Below, piece by piece: positions 33,000-39,753 of a stretch of 64,000 nucleotides of DNA. The notes under the pieces were generated by a model. That model did not search any database and was not told where the DNA came from. It saw only the letters and a list, made by a program, of their open reading frames with translations. Position 1 is the stretch's first letter. Each line of letters begins with the position of its first letter. A program made the translations under genes and the position numbers. Location of the stretch: contig JAGCUN010000012.1 in NCBI GenBank assembly GCA_017962845.1, positions 8,175-72,174 of the forward strand, written 5' to 3'. This DNA comes from Bacteroidales bacterium. Lineage in GTDB: Bacteria; Bacteroidota; Bacteroidia; Bacteroidales; WCHB1-69.

Positions 33000-33707
33000 A
33001 TGGAAAATCAGAAGTCTAACGCCAAAATGTATGTAACCTTTTTCGCCATCAGTATTATTCTTTTTGCGACGGCGGCAATGATTGGTCTCTCCATCAACGT
33101 CTCAAAAGACCACCTGAATGCGGTGACCTCCGCTGGCGAGGCCATTCATCGCAGTTGTGTGAATACCGAAGAAATGGTGTATCAGGAGTATGCGCAACTG
33201 TTGGAAGCACAGGATACTACATTCAATCCCAATATGGAGCAACTCCGCAATTTGTCGTCCGACCTGATCAGTTACATTCAGCACCTGCGCTATGAGATGA
33301 TTCAATATGTGGATGGAAAGCAGGCCGCTGCCGACAATGCCCACGAATTCATGGGTGGCGTGCCGTATGTCAGTGCGAGCGCGATCATGAACAAGGACAA
33401 TGTGGATGCCCAGATGCAGTTCATGTTGGGGAGCCAGCCCACCAGTCGAGCTACCGAGTTAAAGAACAAAATCAACGAGTATAAATCGGCTGTGTTACAA
33501 CTGGTTCCGACTGAAAAGCGCAGTGCAGTGGAAAAGAAATTGGCCTTCCTTTCTACCGCCAATGTTTACGACCGTCGTAATGAAAGAGAGGAGTCGTGGG
33601 AGGAATTTATGTTTCAATATACTTTAGCCAGTGCTGCAGCCATGGAGTTGGAGACTTTGTCATTGGATGTTCTTTCGGCAGAATTAATTATTTTGAAAAA
33701 TTTATAA
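33000..33707 (+). CDS. GldM N-terminal-domain-like membrane-anchored protein (235 aa, lacks GldM C-terminal domains)
   Basis: A single N-terminal TM helix followed by a helical region. Spacing resembles GldM_N (..YIQHLRYEMI.., ..WEEFMFQYTLASAAAMELETLSLDVLSAE..). Confidence 0.45.
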   Translation: MENQKSNAKMYVTFFAISIILFATAAMIGLSINVSKDHLNAVTSAGEAIHRSCVNTEEMVYQEYAQLLEAQDTTFNPNMEQLRNLSSDLISYIQHLRYEMIQYVDGKQAAADNAHEFMGGVPYVSASAIMNKDNVDAQMQFMLGSQPTSRATELKNKINEYKSAVLQLVPTEKRSAVEKKLAFLSTANVYDRRNEREESWEEFMFQYTLASAAAMELETLSLDVLSAELIILKNL

Positions 33708-33720
33708 ATAACTTATTGAT

Positions 33721-33894
33721 ATGAAACACTTTATTTGCATTTTCGGAGCCATCACTTTCGTCCTGTTAGACCTTGGTCTGTTGTTTAAAATCATGCACTA
33801 CCCCGGCGCTGCTGTCATGATTCTGCTGTCGATGGGCGCCCTGCTTCCTGTATTTACTATCTGTACCGCCATCTATGTGGCTATGAAAAAGTAA
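33721..33894 (+). CDS. GldL-like mini membrane protein (57 aa; not in the ORF track)
   Basis: MKHFICIFGAITFVLLDLGLLFKIMHYPGAAVMILLSMGALLPVFTICTAIYVAMKK. The LFKIMH(Y/W)PGA motif between two TM helices is characteristic of the GldL N-terminus and related small proteins. Confidence 0.45.
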   Translation: MKHFICIFGAITFVLLDLGLLFKIMHYPGAAVMILLSMGALLPVFTICTAIYVAMKK

Positions 33895-33981
33895 ATCTTT
33901 TCATCCTTTTTTTCTCTTGGTTTTAATATTTTGAGAAAAAATAGTGTCTAAAGGATTATTGTGTTTAAATTTTTTTTAGCA

Positions 33982-35262
33982 ATGAAAAGAATCGTTTTGG
34001 TATGGATGGTTGCCGGCATGATGATGTCGGGCAGCTTGTTTGGACAACCAACATTACAACTTCAAAAGGCTGAATCAAAGGCTTTTGTGAAAGATACCGT
34101 GGTGGATCCCACCCCGCATCCTATCCACCTGTCTGATGCACAGAAAGCATTTGTGGACGGCAACAATGCCTTCACCCTCAATTTCTTGAAAACCGTCAAC
34201 GCTACCGATGCCGCCGACAAGAGTTTTATCTACTCGCCACTGAGTATCACCTATGTGCTCAGCATGGTGAACGACGCCTCAGTGGGCAAAACCGAGAAGG
34301 AACTGGAGAGAGTGTTGGGCTTCGGTGAGGGTGGCATCTTATCAGTGAATGAATTTTGTAAGACTTTGATTGACAGTCTGCCCAATGTAGACCGGCAGGT
34401 GCAGTTGCATATTGCCAACGCAATTTTTGTAAACCAACACAATCAGCTGAAGGATCAATTCCAGCGCGAAATGCGGAAATATTATGGCGCCATGGCCGAG
34501 TCGTTAGACTTCACATCGCAGGCCTCCCTCAACCGCATCAACGGCTGGTGCAACGCCAGAACCAAAGGGATGATCCCCGAGATTTTGGAAAAACTGGATC
34601 CCGCCGTCATTTCGTACCTGCTGAATGCTATTTATTTCAAGGCCGGATGGACCAACGAGTTTAGTGAAAGCCTTACCCGCAACGAGGTTTTCAACGCGCC
34701 GAAAGGGAAGAAGGAACTGCCGATGATGCATCAGGAAAACCACTTCCGGTATGCGAAAACCGATGTTTTCGCCTTGGTGGACCTTCCTTACAGCAACCAG
34801 ATGTGGAGCATGACGGTGATGCTGCCTGAGCCTGGCAAAAGCACCAACGATGTCATCAACTATCTGGTAGAAAACGGCTTGACCCCCTGCCTCAAGAGCG
34901 CCTACTCGCAGAAAGTGGATCTGAAGCTGCCCCGCTTTGAGACGGAGTCGGAGACCGAAGATTTGATAGAAACGCTGAAAACGATGGGCATCACCCGCGT
35001 TTTCACCGACGGCCTGGCCGAGATCCCGAACATGTGCGATGTGAGTGTGTATATCGGCATGATGTTGCAGAAGGCCCGTATCAAGGTGAACGAAAGCGGT
35101 TCGGAGGCGGCAGCTGTTACCGTGGCCGGCATGATGAAATGCACCTCAGTGCCTCGTCCGGAGCCGCCCGTGGTCTTCCACGCCGACCGGCCGTTTGTGT
35201 ATGTCATCCGCGAAGCCTCCACGGGAGTGATTCTCTTTGTGGGCAAATATGCGGGAGAGTAA
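33982..35262 (+). CDS. Serpin family serine protease inhibitor
   Basis: NAIYFKAGW, reactive-centre hinge GSEAAAVTVAGMM, PFVYVIRE. Signal peptide from ATG 33982. Confidence 0.85.
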   Translation: MKRIVLVWMVAGMMMSGSLFGQPTLQLQKAESKAFVKDTVVDPTPHPIHLSDAQKAFVDGNNAFTLNFLKTVNATDAADKSFIYSPLSITYVLSMVNDASVGKTEKELERVLGFGEGGILSVNEFCKTLIDSLPNVDRQVQLHIANAIFVNQHNQLKDQFQREMRKYYGAMAESLDFTSQASLNRINGWCNARTKGMIPEILEKLDPAVISYLLNAIYFKAGWTNEFSESLTRNEVFNAPKGKKELPMMHQENHFRYAKTDVFALVDLPYSNQMWSMTVMLPEPGKSTNDVINYLVENGLTPCLKSAYSQKVDLKLPRFETESETEDLIETLKTMGITRVFTDGLAEIPNMCDVSVYIGMMLQKARIKVNESGSEAAAVTVAGMMKCTSVPRPEPPVVFHADRPFVYVIREASTGVILFVGKYAGE

Positions 35263-35294
35263 GCGTGGAGAGATGTCACCTTTGGGATAACATA

Positions 35295-35328
35295 GAACGA
35301 CGAACTGGAAAGTTCGCCGTTCTTTTTG
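35295..35328 (+). terminator. Intrinsic terminator of the serpin gene
   Basis: 12-bp stem with one mismatch (GAACGACGAACT/AGTTCGCCGTTC), GGAA loop, T5. Confidence 0.6.
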
Positions 35329-35345
35329 TTGCTTAGTTTGGTTGC

Positions 35346-35459
35346 TTAATCGTCATTCCCTTCCCGGCAATGGTCATATTCGTCATTGTTGGGGTTTAGT
35401 TGGTTGGCGTGATTGTCATAATCCGCTTCACAATGGTCCGCATCAGTATTCCAAGACAT
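35346..35459 (-). CDS. Micro-ORF, 37 aa, acidic (MSWNTDADHCEADYDNHANQLNPNNDEYDHCREGNDD)
   Basis: ATG preceded at 9-nt spacing by GGAGG within the duplicated leader CATAACGAAAGGAGGTAT. Last gene of the minus-strand operon. Confidence 0.4.
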   Translation of the reverse strand: MSWNTDADHCEADYDNHANQLNPNNDEYDHCREGNDD

Positions 35460-35496
35460 AGTTTTATACCTCCTTTCGTTATGGGTTGAAAATTAG

Positions 35497-35604
35497 TTAC
35501 TTTTTTGGTGGGTTGTTATTTCTTCCACCACCAGAAGGATTGTGAGTGCCGTTCTTCGTCGGCCAGCCGCCTTTGCCCTTTTGCGCAATATGGATGATTT
35601 GCAT
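35497..35604 (-). CDS. Micro-ORF, 35 aa, basic Gly/Asn-rich (MQIIHIAQKGKGGWPTKNGTHNPSGGGRNNNPPKK)
   Basis: ATG preceded at 9-nt spacing by GGAGG within the same duplicated leader. Confidence 0.4.
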   Translation of the reverse strand: MQIIHIAQKGKGGWPTKNGTHNPSGGGRNNNPPKK

Positions 35605-35639
35605 TGCTTGATACCTCCTTTCGTTATGTTTGATTTTTT

Positions 35640-35837
35640 TTACTTCTTTGTCGTTTTCTGTGCCAGAACACTAGAGAGTTCTCTTTGACAGTCTTTCTGG
35701 CGTTCCCACTGTTTGGGTGTTTTGTCAGGAATTTTCTGTAATTGTTGGATAGTGTTTTTGTGAGCTTTGATGTAAGCCTCACTTGTTGGATTCAATACTT
35801 CTGACCTTTGGTCGTTGGGAGTTGGTTGTTTTTTCAT
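35640..35837 (-). CDS. Small basic protein, 65 aa
   Basis: ORF starts 41 nt downstream of the 756-aa gene's stop, on the same strand. Contains NDQRSEVLNPTSEAY, related to DNHANQLNPNNDEY in the 37-aa ORF. Confidence 0.45.
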   Translation of the reverse strand: MKKQPTPNDQRSEVLNPTSEAYIKAHKNTIQQLQKIPDKTPKQWERQKDCQRELSSVLAQKTTKK

Positions 35838-35878
35838 GATAAGATAATTTAATTAATGAATTGGGTATAGTGTGTTTT

Positions 35879-38149
35879 CTAACTGAAATCAAGGAACCAA
35901 TACTTTATTTTGCGTATTTGCAACAGTTCGGAATACTTGTCAAACTTTTTCGCCTCATTACAGGTTATGGCATAATTACGAATAATCCATGGATCGTCCG
36001 GTACAATCCGAAGTGCTGTCTCATAGCAGTCAAACGCTTTTTCATATAGTTTCTCTTCAGCATACATATTGGCCAAAGCAGACCACACCTCACAATCATT
36101 TGGACATCTTTCCGATAAATGCTGTAGAATCCTTATCGCCTTTTGTGTTTTCTGTGCTTTCTGTAATTCTAGTGCCTTGTTGAACATAACAAACTCTTCA
36201 TTGTTTTCTTCTTGACGGGTGGGCAAACAGATTCTATAGGCATTATGGGACTGCACGGACAGGGGAAGACCGAAAGACATTTGGGCATCTTGCCCTATTC
36301 TAACGTTTACGTACTTTCGCATATCCTCATCATTTTCTATATGATTGATAAATTGTCCTAAATCAGTATAGACTACTGTTCGGAGATTGTAAATTAGATC
36401 ATAATAGTTGATTTTCAGAATGCCATTGATTCGCTCCATGCACCGCTCATAGGAGGTGGAAACGATCCATCTTGTAACACGCTTGTTCTCAGGATTGTCT
36501 ATTTCACACTCGCTTATTTGCGCAACAGCGTGCAAATCTGTTTGAATGAATTCATAGAAGGCACCAGCCAGGGTTGGTCGCAGTTTTGTTCTTTTCAATT
36601 GTATTAAAAGAATATCTTTGTCACTTTCCACCCAAATGTCAATATCCCCTTTCCCGTTTTTCCCTATTGCGTTTGTATGGATTTCCCTTATGCGAATTTT
36701 ATTTTCGAAAAGTTCCTCAACAAATTTTTCCATTAAGTCAGAGACTTTTTTCTGCAATTCTATATTCTTCGGGAGTGCAAGGTTTTCCAACGCTGCATTA
36801 ATGAAACTATAGAACCACTCGTTTCTCCCCAAAAACATAGTGGGGCATATTAAATTATTATCAATTCTGATGAAGGGTTTGCGAAATACATCAAAGCATT
36901 TTTGTCCCCACTGGAATTTTTTATCGTTAAATTGGAATGAAAACAAATCAATGAGTTCTGTATGAAAATCACCCATGCTGTCGTTTTTGTACATCCCTAA
37001 ATATTCTTCAATAGATAACAAAGTGAATGGAAATTCAAAATGATTTTTTTGTACATTTTCAGCCACCAATTTTGCATATTTCACAAACCAGGTATCTCCA
37101 TTTTGTTTTTCCAACATCTTTTCATATCTCCATTTTTTATTAAATGAGATGCCCATAAGTGGTGTCAATAATTGTTGTATGGGCATTTGTTTTCCTTTCC
37201 ATTCAAAATGATCAATTTGCATGTCGTCCAGAAAACGCAATGTTTTGAATTCAGCAATTTGAAATTCTTTGTTCATTTCATAGTTTTCTCCCTCGCCTGG
37301 TATATGCACCGTCCCATCTTTAATAAGTTCACCAATAAAGACATCTGCATCAGCATCATACCTTTTCTCATTTATCAAATACCGCACATCATTCAATCTC
37401 CACCGATAGAAGTCATACGGACTTTGAATCAAATACAAGTTTTCATGGATCATCTGGGGTGTAATTGTGGTGTCAAAACAATACAAGTCCACTAAATCTC
37501 GATGAAAAGAGATATAATTTAGAATCAATGGGAATAATCGGTTCTCCTTAAACCAAACATCATACGATGGGGCGATTTCCCCCATGTATTGAAAGAACAA
37601 TTCTTTTCCTTTTTCTGATAGGTGCAGATATTTAAACTTGTCTTTTCGTAGCAAATACTCCATAAACCATGCGTAAATTTCGCAAAGGTTTTGCATCGTC
37701 ATGTCTTTCATCCCTTCATACTCGTCGCGATACATTTCCATCCAGCATATAATATCGCAAAAGGTTTTCCAGAAAGCCTGTTCTGGAGTTTGAGGCAAAT
37801 CGTTCAGGTATTTGTCAAACTCAGTCGTGAGTTTTTCCTTGTAATAGCATTCCTGTTCGTATAAGGACTTCCATACCTGTTGATGTAAACATAAAGATTT
37901 GGGTAACGGTATTTCTTGCAAAAAAGAATATCGGTCATTTTTTAAGAATGATTTAGAGCACCGAATTGCCCGAACGAACTCTTCAGGATGATGTAAAGCA
38001 ATACGTTTTTCAAAATCAGGATTGAATTTGCCGCATCTGGTGAAATGCAACAAAATATCATTGAACTTCAAAAGCTCAATATTGCCATTTAATTGAGAGT
38101 ATGCACACTGTCTCTCTTCTTGTTTTTTTCTTTGATTTTTAGTTTCCAT
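35879..38149 (-). CDS. Large uncharacterised protein: unknown N-terminal ~470 aa, PD-(D/E)xK-like nuclease motif, C-terminal TPR repeats
   Basis: 756-aa ORF in an AT-rich island. GKGDIDIWVESDKDILLIQLKR at residues 499-520. TPR-like repeats at residues ~652-745 (WSALANMYAEEKLYEKAFDCYETALRIVPDDP...). Confidence 0.75.
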   Translation of the reverse strand: METKNQRKKQEERQCAYSQLNGNIELLKFNDILLHFTRCGKFNPDFEKRIALHHPEEFVRAIRCSKSFLKNDRYSFLQEIPLPKSLCLHQQVWKSLYEQECYYKEKLTTEFDKYLNDLPQTPEQAFWKTFCDIICWMEMYRDEYEGMKDMTMQNLCEIYAWFMEYLLRKDKFKYLHLSEKGKELFFQYMGEIAPSYDVWFKENRLFPLILNYISFHRDLVDLYCFDTTITPQMIHENLYLIQSPYDFYRWRLNDVRYLINEKRYDADADVFIGELIKDGTVHIPGEGENYEMNKEFQIAEFKTLRFLDDMQIDHFEWKGKQMPIQQLLTPLMGISFNKKWRYEKMLEKQNGDTWFVKYAKLVAENVQKNHFEFPFTLLSIEEYLGMYKNDSMGDFHTELIDLFSFQFNDKKFQWGQKCFDVFRKPFIRIDNNLICPTMFLGRNEWFYSFINAALENLALPKNIELQKKVSDLMEKFVEELFENKIRIREIHTNAIGKNGKGDIDIWVESDKDILLIQLKRTKLRPTLAGAFYEFIQTDLHAVAQISECEIDNPENKRVTRWIVSTSYERCMERINGILKINYYDLIYNLRTVVYTDLGQFINHIENDEDMRKYVNVRIGQDAQMSFGLPLSVQSHNAYRICLPTRQEENNEEFVMFNKALELQKAQKTQKAIRILQHLSERCPNDCEVWSALANMYAEEKLYEKAFDCYETALRIVPDDPWIIRNYAITCNEAKKFDKYSELLQIRKIKYWFLDFS

Positions 38150-38215
38150 TTTTGAACAAAGTTAAAGATGTTACTTAAACCCAAAGGATTCAGTCTTTGT
38201 TCAAAAATGACGCTG

Positions 38216-38223
38216 CAAAAGTA
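38216..38223 (-). promoter_or_regulatory. -7 promoter box TACTTTTG (minus strand) for the 756-aa gene operon
   Basis: Exact TAnnTTTG, 67 nt upstream of the ATG. Confidence 0.45.
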
Positions 38224-38352
38224 CATTTTATTTTTTAGTTTTTGATATTTTTGAAAAAATTTTTTTGAAAAAAAATGGAGACTAAAGTAAATGCTTCAAT
38301 GATAGCATTGTAGGGAAACGGAAAATAAGGGAGAAACTTTTAAAACAAAAAA

Positions 38353-38373
38353 AGAAGACTTCAAAAGTCTTCT
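38353..38373. terminator. Bidirectional hairpin terminator next to the tRNA-Asp 3' end
   Basis: Stem AGAAGACT/AGTCTTCT flanked by an A-run on the left and a T-run on the right. Confidence 0.6.
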
Positions 38374-38388
38374 TTTTTTGTTTCAGGG

Positions 38389-38463
38389 CGGGCCGGACGA
38401 GGCTCGAACTCGCGACCCCATGCGTGACAGGCATGTATTCTAACCAAACTGAACTACCGGCCC
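38389..38463 (-). tRNA. tRNA-Asp (anticodon GTC)
   Basis: The reverse complement GGGCCGGTAGTTCAGTTTGGTTAGAATACATGCCTGTCACGCATGGGGTCGCGAGTTCGAGCCTCGTCCGGCCCG folds as a 75-nt cloverleaf: 7-bp acceptor stem, anticodon loop CTGTCAC, GTTCGAGCC T-loop. CCA is not fully encoded. Confidence 0.9.
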
Positions 38464-38484
38464 TGTTGTCTCATTTCGAGGATG

Positions 38485-38492
38485 CAAAAATA
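38485..38492 (-). promoter_or_regulatory. -7 promoter box TATTTTTG (minus strand) for tRNA-Asp
   Basis: Exact TAnnTTTG, about 22 nt upstream of the tRNA 5' end. Confidence 0.5.
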
Positions 38493-38598
38493 CAGCTTTT
38501 TTGTAAGTTAGCAAGCGTTTTTTCAAAAAAAATCAATATTTTATATTTTATTAAAAATCAATTATTTATAATAAAAATAGTTGATGAAATGATGAAAT

Positions 38599-39753
38599 TT
38601 ACGCTTCTTTGATGATGTTGGTGGTGCCATTTTTCGCACAATCTACCACAATTTCTGCCGCCCGCGCTGATGCGCCCCGCCCGCCGAGCCGGACAAGAAG
38701 CTCGCGATAGTCATCAGAAATTCTCTGCCGTGTCGCCTCGTCGTGCAGCAGTTTCTCTACCTCCGCGCGCAACTTCTGGTGGGTGAGGTCGTGCTGGATG
38801 AGCTCGGTCACCGCCGGCTTGTCGAGCACGAGGTTCACCAACGAGATGTATTGGATGGTGTCTTTCGCCACCGCCTTGGCGATCTGGTACGAGAGACCGC
38901 TGGTTTTGTAGCACACCACCTGCCGCGTGCCAAGGATGGCGGTCTCAAGGGTGGCCGTGCCAGAGGTCACTACGGCGGCCTCGGCGTTCAGCACCAGCGG
39001 GTAGGTTTGCGACAGCGCACATTTCACGTTGTGGCCCCGCAGAATGTCAGCATACAGTTTCTCGGGCAGCCACTTCACGGTGGATACCACAAACTGGTAC
39101 TCGGGGAAGTCATCCACAATCTCCAACATCACAGGCAGTATCTTGGTGATTTCCTGCTTGCGACTGCCGGGCAGGATGGCGATGATAGGACGCTCGTCCA
39201 AACCGTTGATAGCGCGGAAGTTGCGTACCGGATCGCTGTCGCGCAGGTCGGGACCGATGGCGTCGAGCAGCGGGTGTCCCACATAGTTGGCGGTGTAGCC
39301 ATAGCGGGCGTAAAACTCCTTCTCGAACGGCAGAATCGGCATCACATGGTCGCAGGTGCGCTTGATCTTGTGCACGCGCCCGGTCTTCCATGCCCAGATT
39401 TGGGGGGAGATATAATAGATAATTTTGAAACCTTGCTGTTTCGCCCACTCCGCAATGCGCAGGTTGAAGCCGGGATAATCCACCATGATGATGATATCAG
39501 GCTGGTAATCAAGAATATCCTGCTTACAGAAACTGATATTCTTCAGGATGATACGCAGATGGGTGGCCACTTCCCAGAAGCCCATGAAGGCGAGGTCGCG
39601 GTAGTGCTTGACGATGGTGCCGCCCTGTGCTTCCATCAGGTCGCCGCCCCAGCAGCGGTACTCGGCGGCGGGGTCCAGCCGGTTGATTTCGCGCATCAGG
39701 TTCGAGGCGTGCAGGTCGCCGGACGCCTCCCCGGCAATGACGTAGTATTTCAT
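38599..39753 (-). CDS. lpxB: Lipid-A-disaccharide synthase
   Basis: MKYYVIAGEASGDLHASNLM N-terminus with the GT19 family layout. Confidence 0.9.
   Translation of the reverse strand: MKYYVIAGEASGDLHASNLMREINRLDPAAEYRCWGGDLMEAQGGTIVKHYRDLAFMGFWEVATHLRIILKNISFCKQDILDYQPDIIIMVDYPGFNLRIAEWAKQQGFKIIYYISPQIWAWKTGRVHKIKRTCDHVMPILPFEKEFYARYGYTANYVGHPLLDAIGPDLRDSDPVRNFRAINGLDERPIIAILPGSRKQEITKILPVMLEIVDDFPEYQFVVSTVKWLPEKLYADILRGHNVKCALSQTYPLVLNAEAAVVTSGTATLETAILGTRQVVCYKTSGLSYQIAKAVAKDTIQYISLVNLVLDKPAVTELIQHDLTHQKLRAEVEKLLHDEATRQRISDDYRELLVRLGGRGASARAAEIVVDCAKNGTTNIIKEA

Follow-up and report, generated by a model that had tools for sequence, protein, structure and literature searches.

The 64-kb stretch of DNA analysed here (64,000 nucleotides of contig JAGCUN010000012.1 from a gut Bacteroidales bacterium, hereafter the window) carries an AT-rich islet between a serpin gene and tRNA-Asp. 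The islet's large gene, judged by profile match, belongs to a viperin-associated family, and its three micro-protein genes stand where relatives carry a prokaryotic viperin (pVip). We read this islet, with a probability of roughly 0.6, as a self-contained, horizontally acquired cassette, most likely for anti-phage defence. The initial annotation had singled it out as the best candidate for an undescribed system; the system proves to be a variant of a viperin-partner family, and what appears undescribed is the leader RNA, the families to which the micro-proteins belong and the version in which these stand without a viperin. Viperin is an enzyme that makes chain-terminating ddh-nucleotides, and its prokaryotic forms are well known for connecting the antiviral immunity of bacteria with that of animals. 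Little work has been devoted to phage defence in Bacteroidia, although they are the dominant bacteria of the human gut.

35263-38340: accessory insertion (islet), ~3.08 kb, between the serpin stop codon and the tRNA-Asp terminator hairpin
38216-38223, minus strand: Bacteroidetes-type -7 promoter box TAnnTTTG, TACTTTTG, read from the sequence
38147-38209, minus strand: predicted structured 5' leader, an inverted repeat with a 15-bp perfect outer stem (38195-38209 x 38147-38161)
35879-38149, minus strand: 756-aa protein assigned to the viperin-associated NERD/TPR family (PADLOC PDLC02906, 6.7e-23)
35640-35837, minus strand: micro-protein A, 65 aa, charge +6.6, with an NDQRSxVxNP motif ahead of a basic helix
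35497-35604, minus strand: micro-protein B, 35 aa, charge +5.7, motif GGWPxKxGxxNPSGGGRxNNPPKK
35346-35459, minus strand: micro-protein C, 37 aa, charge -10.2, MSWNxDADHCxADYDNHANQLNPNNDEY
35295-35328: hairpin terminator closing the operon (terminator-like site 35301-35316; hairpin GAACGGCGAACT/AGTTCGTCGTTC on the minus strand)

The four minus-strand open reading frames (ORFs; 756, 65, 35 and 37 aa) lie where the initial annotation had placed them, as does the TAnnTTTG box, which is conserved in homologous cassettes; the terminator that it had reported on the serpin side corresponds to the terminator-like hairpin at 35301-35316. This terminator hairpin falls inside the inserted segment and also serves the convergent serpin gene.

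A divergent match to a viperin-linked family

The large protein had been thought unassignable. PADLOC's model of a pVip accessory gene, PDLC02906, nonetheless matches its residues 414-608 (model positions 365-539 of 542), and 60 of 62 aligned family members match the same viperin-associated NERD model, the best at 3e-41. An exhaustive HMMER search among 1.84 billion representatives gathered 157 clusters, almost all from Bacteroidota and most aligning over residues 30-615; such a search was required to reveal the family, because word-indexed protein searches, whether with the single sequence or with the 62-sequence profile, each returned only two close relatives and one TPR protein. We conclude that the large protein is, by sequence, a divergent member of a catalogued, functionally uncharacterised family. 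The family is rare, with 26 loci among 185,579 species genomes, all in Bacteroidota except one on a short contig binned as Akkermansia, and a family scan of viral contigs found no relatives there.

The family name needs a qualification. The Pfam model of the NERD domain (PF08378; Grynberg and Godzik 2004) matches neither the window protein at E<=1 nor any of the 62 members at E<=1e-3, and we therefore term the core PD-(D/E)xK-type, NERD-like by PADLOC's label. Thirty-eight of the 62 carry Pfam TPRs, and no other Pfam family was found among them. What ties the window to PDLC02906 loci is the profile match, the end-to-end alignment of the family and the leader RNA shared by relatives; it differs from them in lacking a viperin, in having micro-protein genes in that slot and in covering the model only in part, being a divergent member.

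Linkage to viperin is the family's most frequent context. In 15 of the 26 genome loci and 10 of 22 metagenome loci the family gene is followed, after 51-152 nt and on its own strand, by a pVip gene; the ORFs in the genome loci are radical SAM proteins of 290-310 aa (two are longer, ~470 aa) with the viperin signature (VNFHLWEPCNMRCKFCF). Among the 40 contexts that are informative, meaning that they hold at least 1 kb of downstream DNA, 25 have pVip downstream, six have micro-ORFs and nine have neither. Neither the islet nor the 64-kb window holds a viperin motif CNxxCxFC or a radical SAM ORF. The members that bear micro-ORFs (the window and the loci L003, L001, L009, L008 and L015) form one clade in a neighbour-joining tree, and in this clade one to three micro-protein genes occupy the viperin slot. 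Because the window swaps viperin for micro-proteins and other relatives have neither, the nuclease/TPR partner must have a function of its own. The gene accompanies viperins in many Bacteroidota as a partner that the literature searched does not describe, and a comparison of the loci offers a handle on the separate contributions of viperin and micro-proteins.

Several relatives also adjoin Gabija-like, PtuA-like or type I restriction-modification (R-M)-like genes. Two loci with neither pVip nor micro-ORFs have neighbourhoods that resemble defence islands: L019 lies between an ATPase and helicase pair and a PDC-M62A/PtuA-like ATPase, and L021 adjoins a PDDEXK-like protein and type I R-M-like genes. 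The look of a defence system, which the initial annotation had noted, is backed by the family's link to defence (60/62 PADLOC matches, 25/40 contexts with pVip), while the literature searched holds no report of anti-phage activity; within that literature, which does not include the original pVip paper, we found no paper describing or testing the viperin-associated NERD partner.

An accessory insertion beside, not at, a tRNA gene

The foreign composition proposed from the letters holds when GC content is computed: the islet has 0.363, against ~0.55-0.60 beside it and 0.497 for the whole window, with local values of 0.30-0.41 over ~35400-38600 and 0.52-0.62 on both flanks. The proposed comparison for presence or absence among close relatives also came out clearly. 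We selected contigs by a closely related LpxB allele, in the same 90% cluster as the window's LpxB, and in all eight listed contigs (L082-L089) LpxB and tRNA-Asp are followed by the serpin without the islet. In BLAST alignments of these empty sites the match to the window ends at 38341 and resumes at 35262, with ~17 nt between, which places the insertion at 35263-38340; the left edge is possibly ~35 nt further in (~38303), as the 17-nt spacer bears a weak resemblance to 38303-38319. Where LpxB is identical, the contigs always contain the islet, and its DNA is 100% identical. The segment is thus a genuine accessory insertion, polymorphic among close relatives.

This polymorphism bears on the idea that the large protein is a housekeeping nuclease for DNA repair or processing, its low GC reflecting fast evolution. 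Its neighbours are indeed housekeeping genes, yet the empty site contradicts a housekeeping role, as do the extreme rarity of the family among species genomes, its viperin linkage and the splitting of the gene in some strains; we consider this the least probable of the explanations weighed here.

The initial annotation had treated the position beside a tRNA gene as meaningful.

38387-38463, minus strand: tRNA-Asp(GTC) (Rfam boundaries 38389-38463)

The insertion begins past the tRNA's own terminator hairpin, no direct or att-type repeats flank the islet, and the islet contains no integrase ORF, from which we conclude that the tRNA is a neighbour and not a target. Homologous cassettes at other sites do not adjoin tRNAs either, and the adjacency is best regarded as incidental. 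Insertion of the integrase type at the tRNA is excluded by the absence of att-type repeats; islands of that type carry the integrase and tRNA-derived direct repeats that this islet lacks.

Other Bacteroidales carry this cassette elsewhere on the chromosome, at sites that are unrelated (L001, L008, L009, L015). Similarity between the window and L001 runs from the promoter box to the stop codon of the 37-aa ORF, which defines the mobile unit as promoter, leader, large gene and micro-ORFs. The -7 box stands at the same distance from the leader in L003, L001, L008 and L009 (TATTTTTG), in unrelated genomic contexts, and pVip-linked loci have TAnnTTTG boxes 4-6 nt ahead of the leader.

Micro-proteins in the viperin slot

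A, B and C are real coding genes, with substitution patterns of purifying selection. C in L001 is identical at 35 of 37 residues, against 72% identity for the large protein, and in the closer comparisons its codon changes are 10:2, 11:5, 11:5, 12:6 and 18:4 (synonymous:non-synonymous), against 122:193 for the large gene in the same pair. A reading of the micro-ORFs as non-coding RNA was rejected on this substitution pattern and on the absence of Rfam matches. In relatives at 26-45% identity, peptides of types A and B are found again in the corresponding place: A lies 3' of the family gene in L003/4, L009 and L015, and B is kept in L001/2, L015 and L010. The sets are modular (A+B+C in the window, A+C in L003, B+C in L001, A, C, B in that order in L015 and B only in L010). 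A six-frame scan of all family flanks found the peptides solely directly 3' of the family gene, in six distinct contexts that make up one clade plus L010.

Part of this modularity has a visible cause in short repeats that carry translation signals.

35613-35620, minus strand: Shine-Dalgarno (SD) box AAGGAGGT of B, 7-8 nt ahead of its ATG
35468-35475, minus strand: SD box AAGGAGGT of C, 7-8 nt ahead of its ATG
35457-35483 and 35602-35628, minus strand: two copies of a 27-nt repeat, 89% identical, which supply the SD box and start codon of C and B

L003/4 lacks exactly the stretch between the two repeat copies and with it ORF B, a loss explained by the repeat, since B and C each have their ribosome-binding site and start codon within a copy of it. 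ORF A has no such SD box. The window contains only three AAGGAGGT octamers; two serve B and C, and the third lies within an opposite-strand ORF. In L009, L015 and the pVip locus L031, C has this box as well; in L035, L037, L043, L047 and L051 the box is absent ahead of C.

Strong SD boxes are unusual in this lineage. Ribosomes of Bacteroidia are reported to be blind to the SD, because bS21, bS18 and bS6 sequester the anti-SD, and the SD-led rpsU mRNA is preferentially translated by ribosomes lacking bS21 (PMC7797042, PMC9976891, PMC13000453). As such strong sites are normally ignored by these ribosomes, translation of B and C is probably conditional. The arrangement resembles the autoregulation of rpsU (bS21) in Bacteroidia, where a strong extended SD also stands ahead of a small ORF in an SD-ignoring lineage (PMC9976891, PMC13000453); it differs in that the SD of the window precedes accessory micro-protein genes. 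Some phages encode bS21 (PMC9723584). A far-reaching version of our reading, and in our view a long shot, would have A, B and C as unrecognised, widespread, defence-associated micro-proteins that replace viperin as the second arm and are gated by an anti-SD unmasked when bS21 is lost or displaced. If it were true, the cassette would sense a phage-induced change of ribosome state, and SD gating together with the AUG-sequestering leader would form a two-layer translational trigger for an immune nuclease.

All three micro-proteins are strongly hydrophilic (grand average of hydropathy -1.4 to -1.9), with no hydrophobic segment or signal peptide, and the AlphaFold2 (AF2) model of C shows no confident fold (predicted local distance difference test, pLDDT, 64). 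None matches a PADLOC, Pfam or NCBIfam model, and their motifs were not found in any paper of the literature searched. They had been described as trailing low-complexity products outside any named system: the second half of that description stands, and the first gives way to conserved families. C is itself peculiar in composition, with 20 of 37 residues Asp, Asn, His or Tyr, the amino acids of NAY codons, which are read by queuosine-family tRNAs; the islet abuts tRNA-Asp, which may be coincidence.

The lack of signal peptides bears on the possibility that the locus is an RRNPP-like peptide-signalling pair, or encodes a ribosomally synthesised and post-translationally modified peptide, with the TPR protein as receptor for a secreted or modified micro-ORF product. 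RRNPP receptors carry TPRs, a TPR gene followed by very small ORFs resembles the Rap/Phr and AimR/AimP layouts, and the window protein matches the sensor-type TPR-S model at 7.6e-5. We regard this as very improbable. Secretion or maturation is contradicted by the hydrophilic peptides and by an islet without transporter, protease or maturase; the large protein has no DNA-binding (helix-turn-helix, HTH) domain detectable with Pfam; and the pairing itself fails, since L008 retains C yet appears to lack most of the TPR, and many pVip-linked members have TPRs and no peptides.

Peptide families beyond the cassette

A, B and C belong, by pattern and cluster searches, to conserved, widespread and unnamed small-protein families. 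The type C set alone comprises 278 unnamed clusters with one or two copies of D(L/Y)DNHANQ(L/M)NPNNDEYWHSRG; a 1604-aa member of one C cluster lacks the motif and was dismissed as a clustering artefact. In L031-33 a member of the window's own type C subfamily follows a pVip (3.4e-67) in a LytTR-type two-component operon. Elsewhere this subfamily follows a pair of 295- and 326-aa proteins, in L035 beside PD-T4-3 GIY-YIG and PDC-S26 genes; it lies beside BREX and GmrSD genes in L037 and L043, and behind other Pfam-less proteins in AT-rich two-gene islets in L047 and L051. The pattern has exceptions: one two-repeat relative of C has metabolic genes around it, and another stands in an island of HNH, helicase and transposase genes. 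Hidden Markov models excluded the partner proteins of C (268, 295, 326 and 364 aa) as relatives of the NERD/TPR family.

Viral contigs were scanned for the peptide motifs by pattern, since tblastn of peptide C against phage and plasmid collections gave no match, probably owing to low-complexity filtering. The B family is present in 14 viral contigs. In L069/73 the motifs of A and C are fused in a hybrid peptide, with a B peptide behind it; A and C therefore share one repeat unit, roughly [RH][SA]N[QV]xNPNNxxY. These peptide families, partly missed by gene callers and overlooked by standard annotation, thus recur in defence islands and phages.

Some of these loci show features of their own. The operon of the metagenome contigs L031-L034 consists of an HTH protein, a histidine-kinase-like protein, a LytTR-like regulator, a variable slot and a type-C micro-ORF with the same SD box; the slot looks cassette-like, since L031-33 have pVip and a 79-aa protein where L034 has a 92-aa ORF unrelated to them. 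On the viral or proviral contig L078 (3026-5454) a 486-aa TPR protein is followed by pVip (3e-73) and, 10 nt on, by a type-B micro-ORF. This TPR protein does not match the PADLOC NERD model and makes a second TPR-viperin-micro-protein architecture. The closely related phage contigs L055-L067 (IMG/VR) encode a 62-aa, two-repeat, C-like acidic protein between TerL and a ParB-N6/N4 methyltransferase.

This wide distribution is what makes a serious rival of the proposal that the micro-ORFs are an independent mobile small-gene cassette, settling at the 3' ends of accessory operons and functionally unconnected with the nuclease/TPR protein; micro-proteins of phage origin or for generic stress would be examples. 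The peptide families follow many unrelated genes and lie between TerL and the methyltransferase in phage contigs, a two-repeat relative has a purely metabolic neighbourhood, and the cassette is modular (ABC, AC, BC, B) through recombination between the 27-nt repeats. Within the family, however, the peptides are confined to the slot that is otherwise pVip's and essentially to one clade, at 26-45% identity of the large protein, which implies long co-inheritance; the similarity between window and L001 is a single unit from promoter to the stop codon of C; and in L031 and L078 a peptide comes after pVip itself, a link between all three partners. On balance we think a mere hitchhiker unlikely.

A toxin-antitoxin or addiction module would account for the micro-proteins differently: a nuclease toxin held in check by acidic C and perhaps buffered by A and B, the cassette persisting since its loss kills the cell and defence being at most a by-product. 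Type II modules resemble the islet in placing very small ORFs behind the gene of a larger protein, and many antitoxins share the small size and acidity of C, which has a charge of -10 and is disordered. C is found in other two-gene AT-rich islets behind unrelated Pfam-less proteins of 268-364 aa, and the toxins HicA and RelE are known neighbours of pVip genes (PMC10865869). The layout is nevertheless poor for a constant antidote, with C last in the operon behind an SD normally ignored in Bacteroidia. Most family members, pVip-linked or solo, have no C gene, so the nuclease is tolerated without it; L010 has B alone and L003 lacks B; and the obligatory co-occurrence expected of type II systems fails, with 34 of 40 contexts free of micro-ORFs. 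We judge an addiction module decidedly unlikely. As the micro-proteins are neither universal partners nor TPR-dependent (L008), we favour an accessory or modulator role over that of an antidote, and this is the weakest link of the defence reading.

A predicted leader hairpin over the start codon

The cassette's mRNA is predicted to begin with a hairpin whose 3' arm contains the ATG of the large gene (38149-38147), so that the start codon is sequestered in the outer stem. Inside this stem lie a small inner hairpin and an unpaired A/U-rich stretch. The leader folds at -21.2 kcal/mol (minimum free energy; z = -4.4), and none of 200 shuffles folds as well. The layout recurs across the family with differing arm sequences: -7 box, ~5 nt, 5' arm, inner hairpin, A/U-rich stretch and AUG-bearing 3' arm. 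In pVip-linked leaders the core is conserved in sequence as well, UCGC-N3-4-GCGA-(C)AAUCU(U)AAAU, i.e. UCGC-N3-4-GCGA-CAAUCUUAAAU.

RNAalifold on MAFFT alignments of the leaders recovered the inner hairpin only, because the outer arms were out of register; a covariance model seeded with structure, from 12 pVip-type leaders, mended the register. It recovers L016 and about a dozen metagenome loci outside the seed, with matches that end ~7 nt past the start codon. Across the 24 distinct leaders so aligned, pairing holds in 80.5% of cells and falls to 28-49% with partners slid, 12 of 14 outer-stem pairs have changed on both sides, and 52 cells are compensatory, where shuffles give 20 +/- 4 (a number as high arose in 0 of 500), counts that come from a model-fitted alignment and are biased towards structure. 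Leaders of the peptide clade, which have a different inner hairpin, get no score from this model; folded one at a time they do show the outer stem, with z = -4.4 (window), -5.1 (L001), -3.4 (L008) and -2.4 (L009). Rfam has no match to the window leader at E<=1 and none at the gathering score for four pVip-type loci. We conclude that the AUG-sequestering hairpin is a predicted family-wide element, supported by covariation and uncatalogued in Rfam. With the SD-led micro-ORFs it makes two directly testable examples of how translation may be controlled in a phylum whose initiation rules are unusual.

A leader hairpin upstream of the family gene was also seen in L005-L028 and L090-L111. In L015 (7548-7668) the longest ORF, of 967 aa, probably starts 40 codons early, and the hairpin and the TATTTTTG box mark the internal ATG at codon 40 as its likely true start.

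A putative nuclease core with diverging flanks

The AlphaFold2 model of the large protein, computed with the family alignment, is of high confidence (pLDDT 90.1, predicted TM-score 0.89) and suggests three domains, with a helical linker between the second and third.

36773-38149, minus strand: N-terminal, mostly helical region, residues 1-459, with no Pfam/NCBIfam family
36404-36772, minus strand: predicted PD-(D/E)xK-type nuclease core, residues 460-582 (E474, GDxD motif D502/D504, Q517-x-K519)
35882-36214, minus strand: C-terminal TPR domain, residues 646-756, six helices making three repeats (Pfam, model)

E474, D502, D504, Q517 and K519 are invariant across the 62 sequences, within GDxDI...IQLKR, and the modelled topology of the core is alpha-beta-beta-beta-alpha-beta with these residues at the positions expected for a PD-(D/E)xK nuclease: the helix-1 acid (E474), D-x-D where strand 2 begins and x-K within strand 3. 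The family departs from NERD and other PD-(D/E)xK proteins in having QxK for (D/E)xK and a preceding 460-residue N-domain of unmatched fold. Model and conservation together support the assignment of residues 460-582 as a putative PD-(D/E)xK-type core. Pfam places TPR_2, TPR_1, TPR_14 and TPR_17 above their gathering cut-offs over residues 646-740 (TPR-S as given above); in the model the TPR helices span 651-749 and reach TM 0.8-0.87 to consensus or designed TPR structures. The nuclease-like motif and repeats that the initial annotation had recognised are therefore borne out, by the invariant residues, the modelled core and the Pfam matches. Its failure to place the first ~470 residues also stands for the N-domain, which matches no known family or structure, although the protein as a whole has a family.

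Searches with Pfam, NCBIfam and PDB sequences found the C-terminal TPRs only; a single-sequence PDB search likewise gave TPRs only, and a profile of residues 1-625 found no solved relative. Foldseek with the full model against PDB and BFVD, the comparison suggested at the outset, was dominated by TPRs and gave no match at E<=1e-3 and no relative of the N-domain. Its best non-TPR matches are weak and local and are all PD-(D/E)xK proteins: Upx (9wuf), Cdn1 (8z4i), VC1899 (1xmx) and Nt.BspD6I.

The best of these, Upx, is a single-protein PD-(D/E)xK anti-phage system that senses terminase (PDB 9wuf), with a nuclease reported to be auto-inhibited until a phage protein binds (PMC13099982, PMC13601566). 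Like the window protein, Upx is one large polypeptide in which a regulatory region of helices is combined with a PD-(D/E)xK core at the C-terminus. The similarity is weak and local (E 2e-3, TM 0.22, rmsd 23.5 A), the PDB sequence searches gave no Upx match, and Upx differs in its pair of nuclease domains, in lacking a TPR and in having neither micro-ORFs nor a viperin associated with it. The CARF-nuclease effectors Card1/Can2/VC1899 and Cdn1 are represented by weak matches to the nuclease core (1xmx, 8z4i); they differ from the window protein, in which no CARF domain was detected and whose context involves neither CRISPR nor cyclic oligonucleotides.

Close relatives diverge in mosaic fashion. 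The nuclease core, at 80-99% identity, is the most conserved region, and residues 1-225, residues 226-400 and the TPR drop to 83%, 61% and 54% in different comparisons. A conserved core with a fast-diverging N-domain and TPR is the pattern expected of a conserved effector with rapidly evolving recognition surfaces.

In some samples the large gene is split at residue 355/356 into ORFs of 355 and 403 aa (P0278 and P0279 in the cluster of the 756-aa protein), the N-terminal piece 88% and the C-terminal piece 98% identical to the window protein. Some contigs with identical LpxB carry 618-aa gene calls; a pseudogene or truncation was excluded there, as the underlying DNA is 100% identical and the calls differ only in the choice of start.

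A candidate defence cassette

One Bacteroidetes promoter drives the cassette, and we suggest that the 5' hairpin of the mRNA, by burying the start codon of the first gene, restrains the basal translation of what may be a toxic nuclease. An infection cue, probably a phage protein, may be sensed by the variable N-domain together with the TPR; recognition would free the nuclease to cut DNA and so stop either the phage or the cell that it has infected. The micro-proteins, which are disordered and of which two are basic and one is very acidic, would act as accessory modulators of this response and replace the viperin arm.

Several points weigh against this proposal. The link to defence is guilt by association together with the PADLOC label, and the literature search found no experiment on any family member; we make the functional claim by association. 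The islet's neighbourhood consists of housekeeping genes (LpxB, serpin, GldM-like) and is no defence island. The third catalytic position is Q (Q517) and not D/E, which leaves the nuclease a putative one, and the N-domain has no viral (BFVD) or PDB structural relative by Foldseek or profile search. The micro-proteins are not obligatory partners, being absent from 34 of 40 family contexts, the C of L008 persists where most of the TPR appears to be gone, and the wider C superfamily extends into ordinary metabolic neighbourhoods (one two-repeat relative). The structural bias of the covariation counts, mentioned above, belongs to the same account.

Neighbouring genes

The genes on the serpin side of the islet (33000-35262) form an unusual trio: a protein with a GldM_1st domain (235 aa), a 57-aa ORF and the serpin (426-433 aa). 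In a relative the 57-aa ORF near the serpin has a weak GldL_N match. In strains without the islet the serpin ends next to the tRNA-Asp terminator hairpin and may use it jointly.

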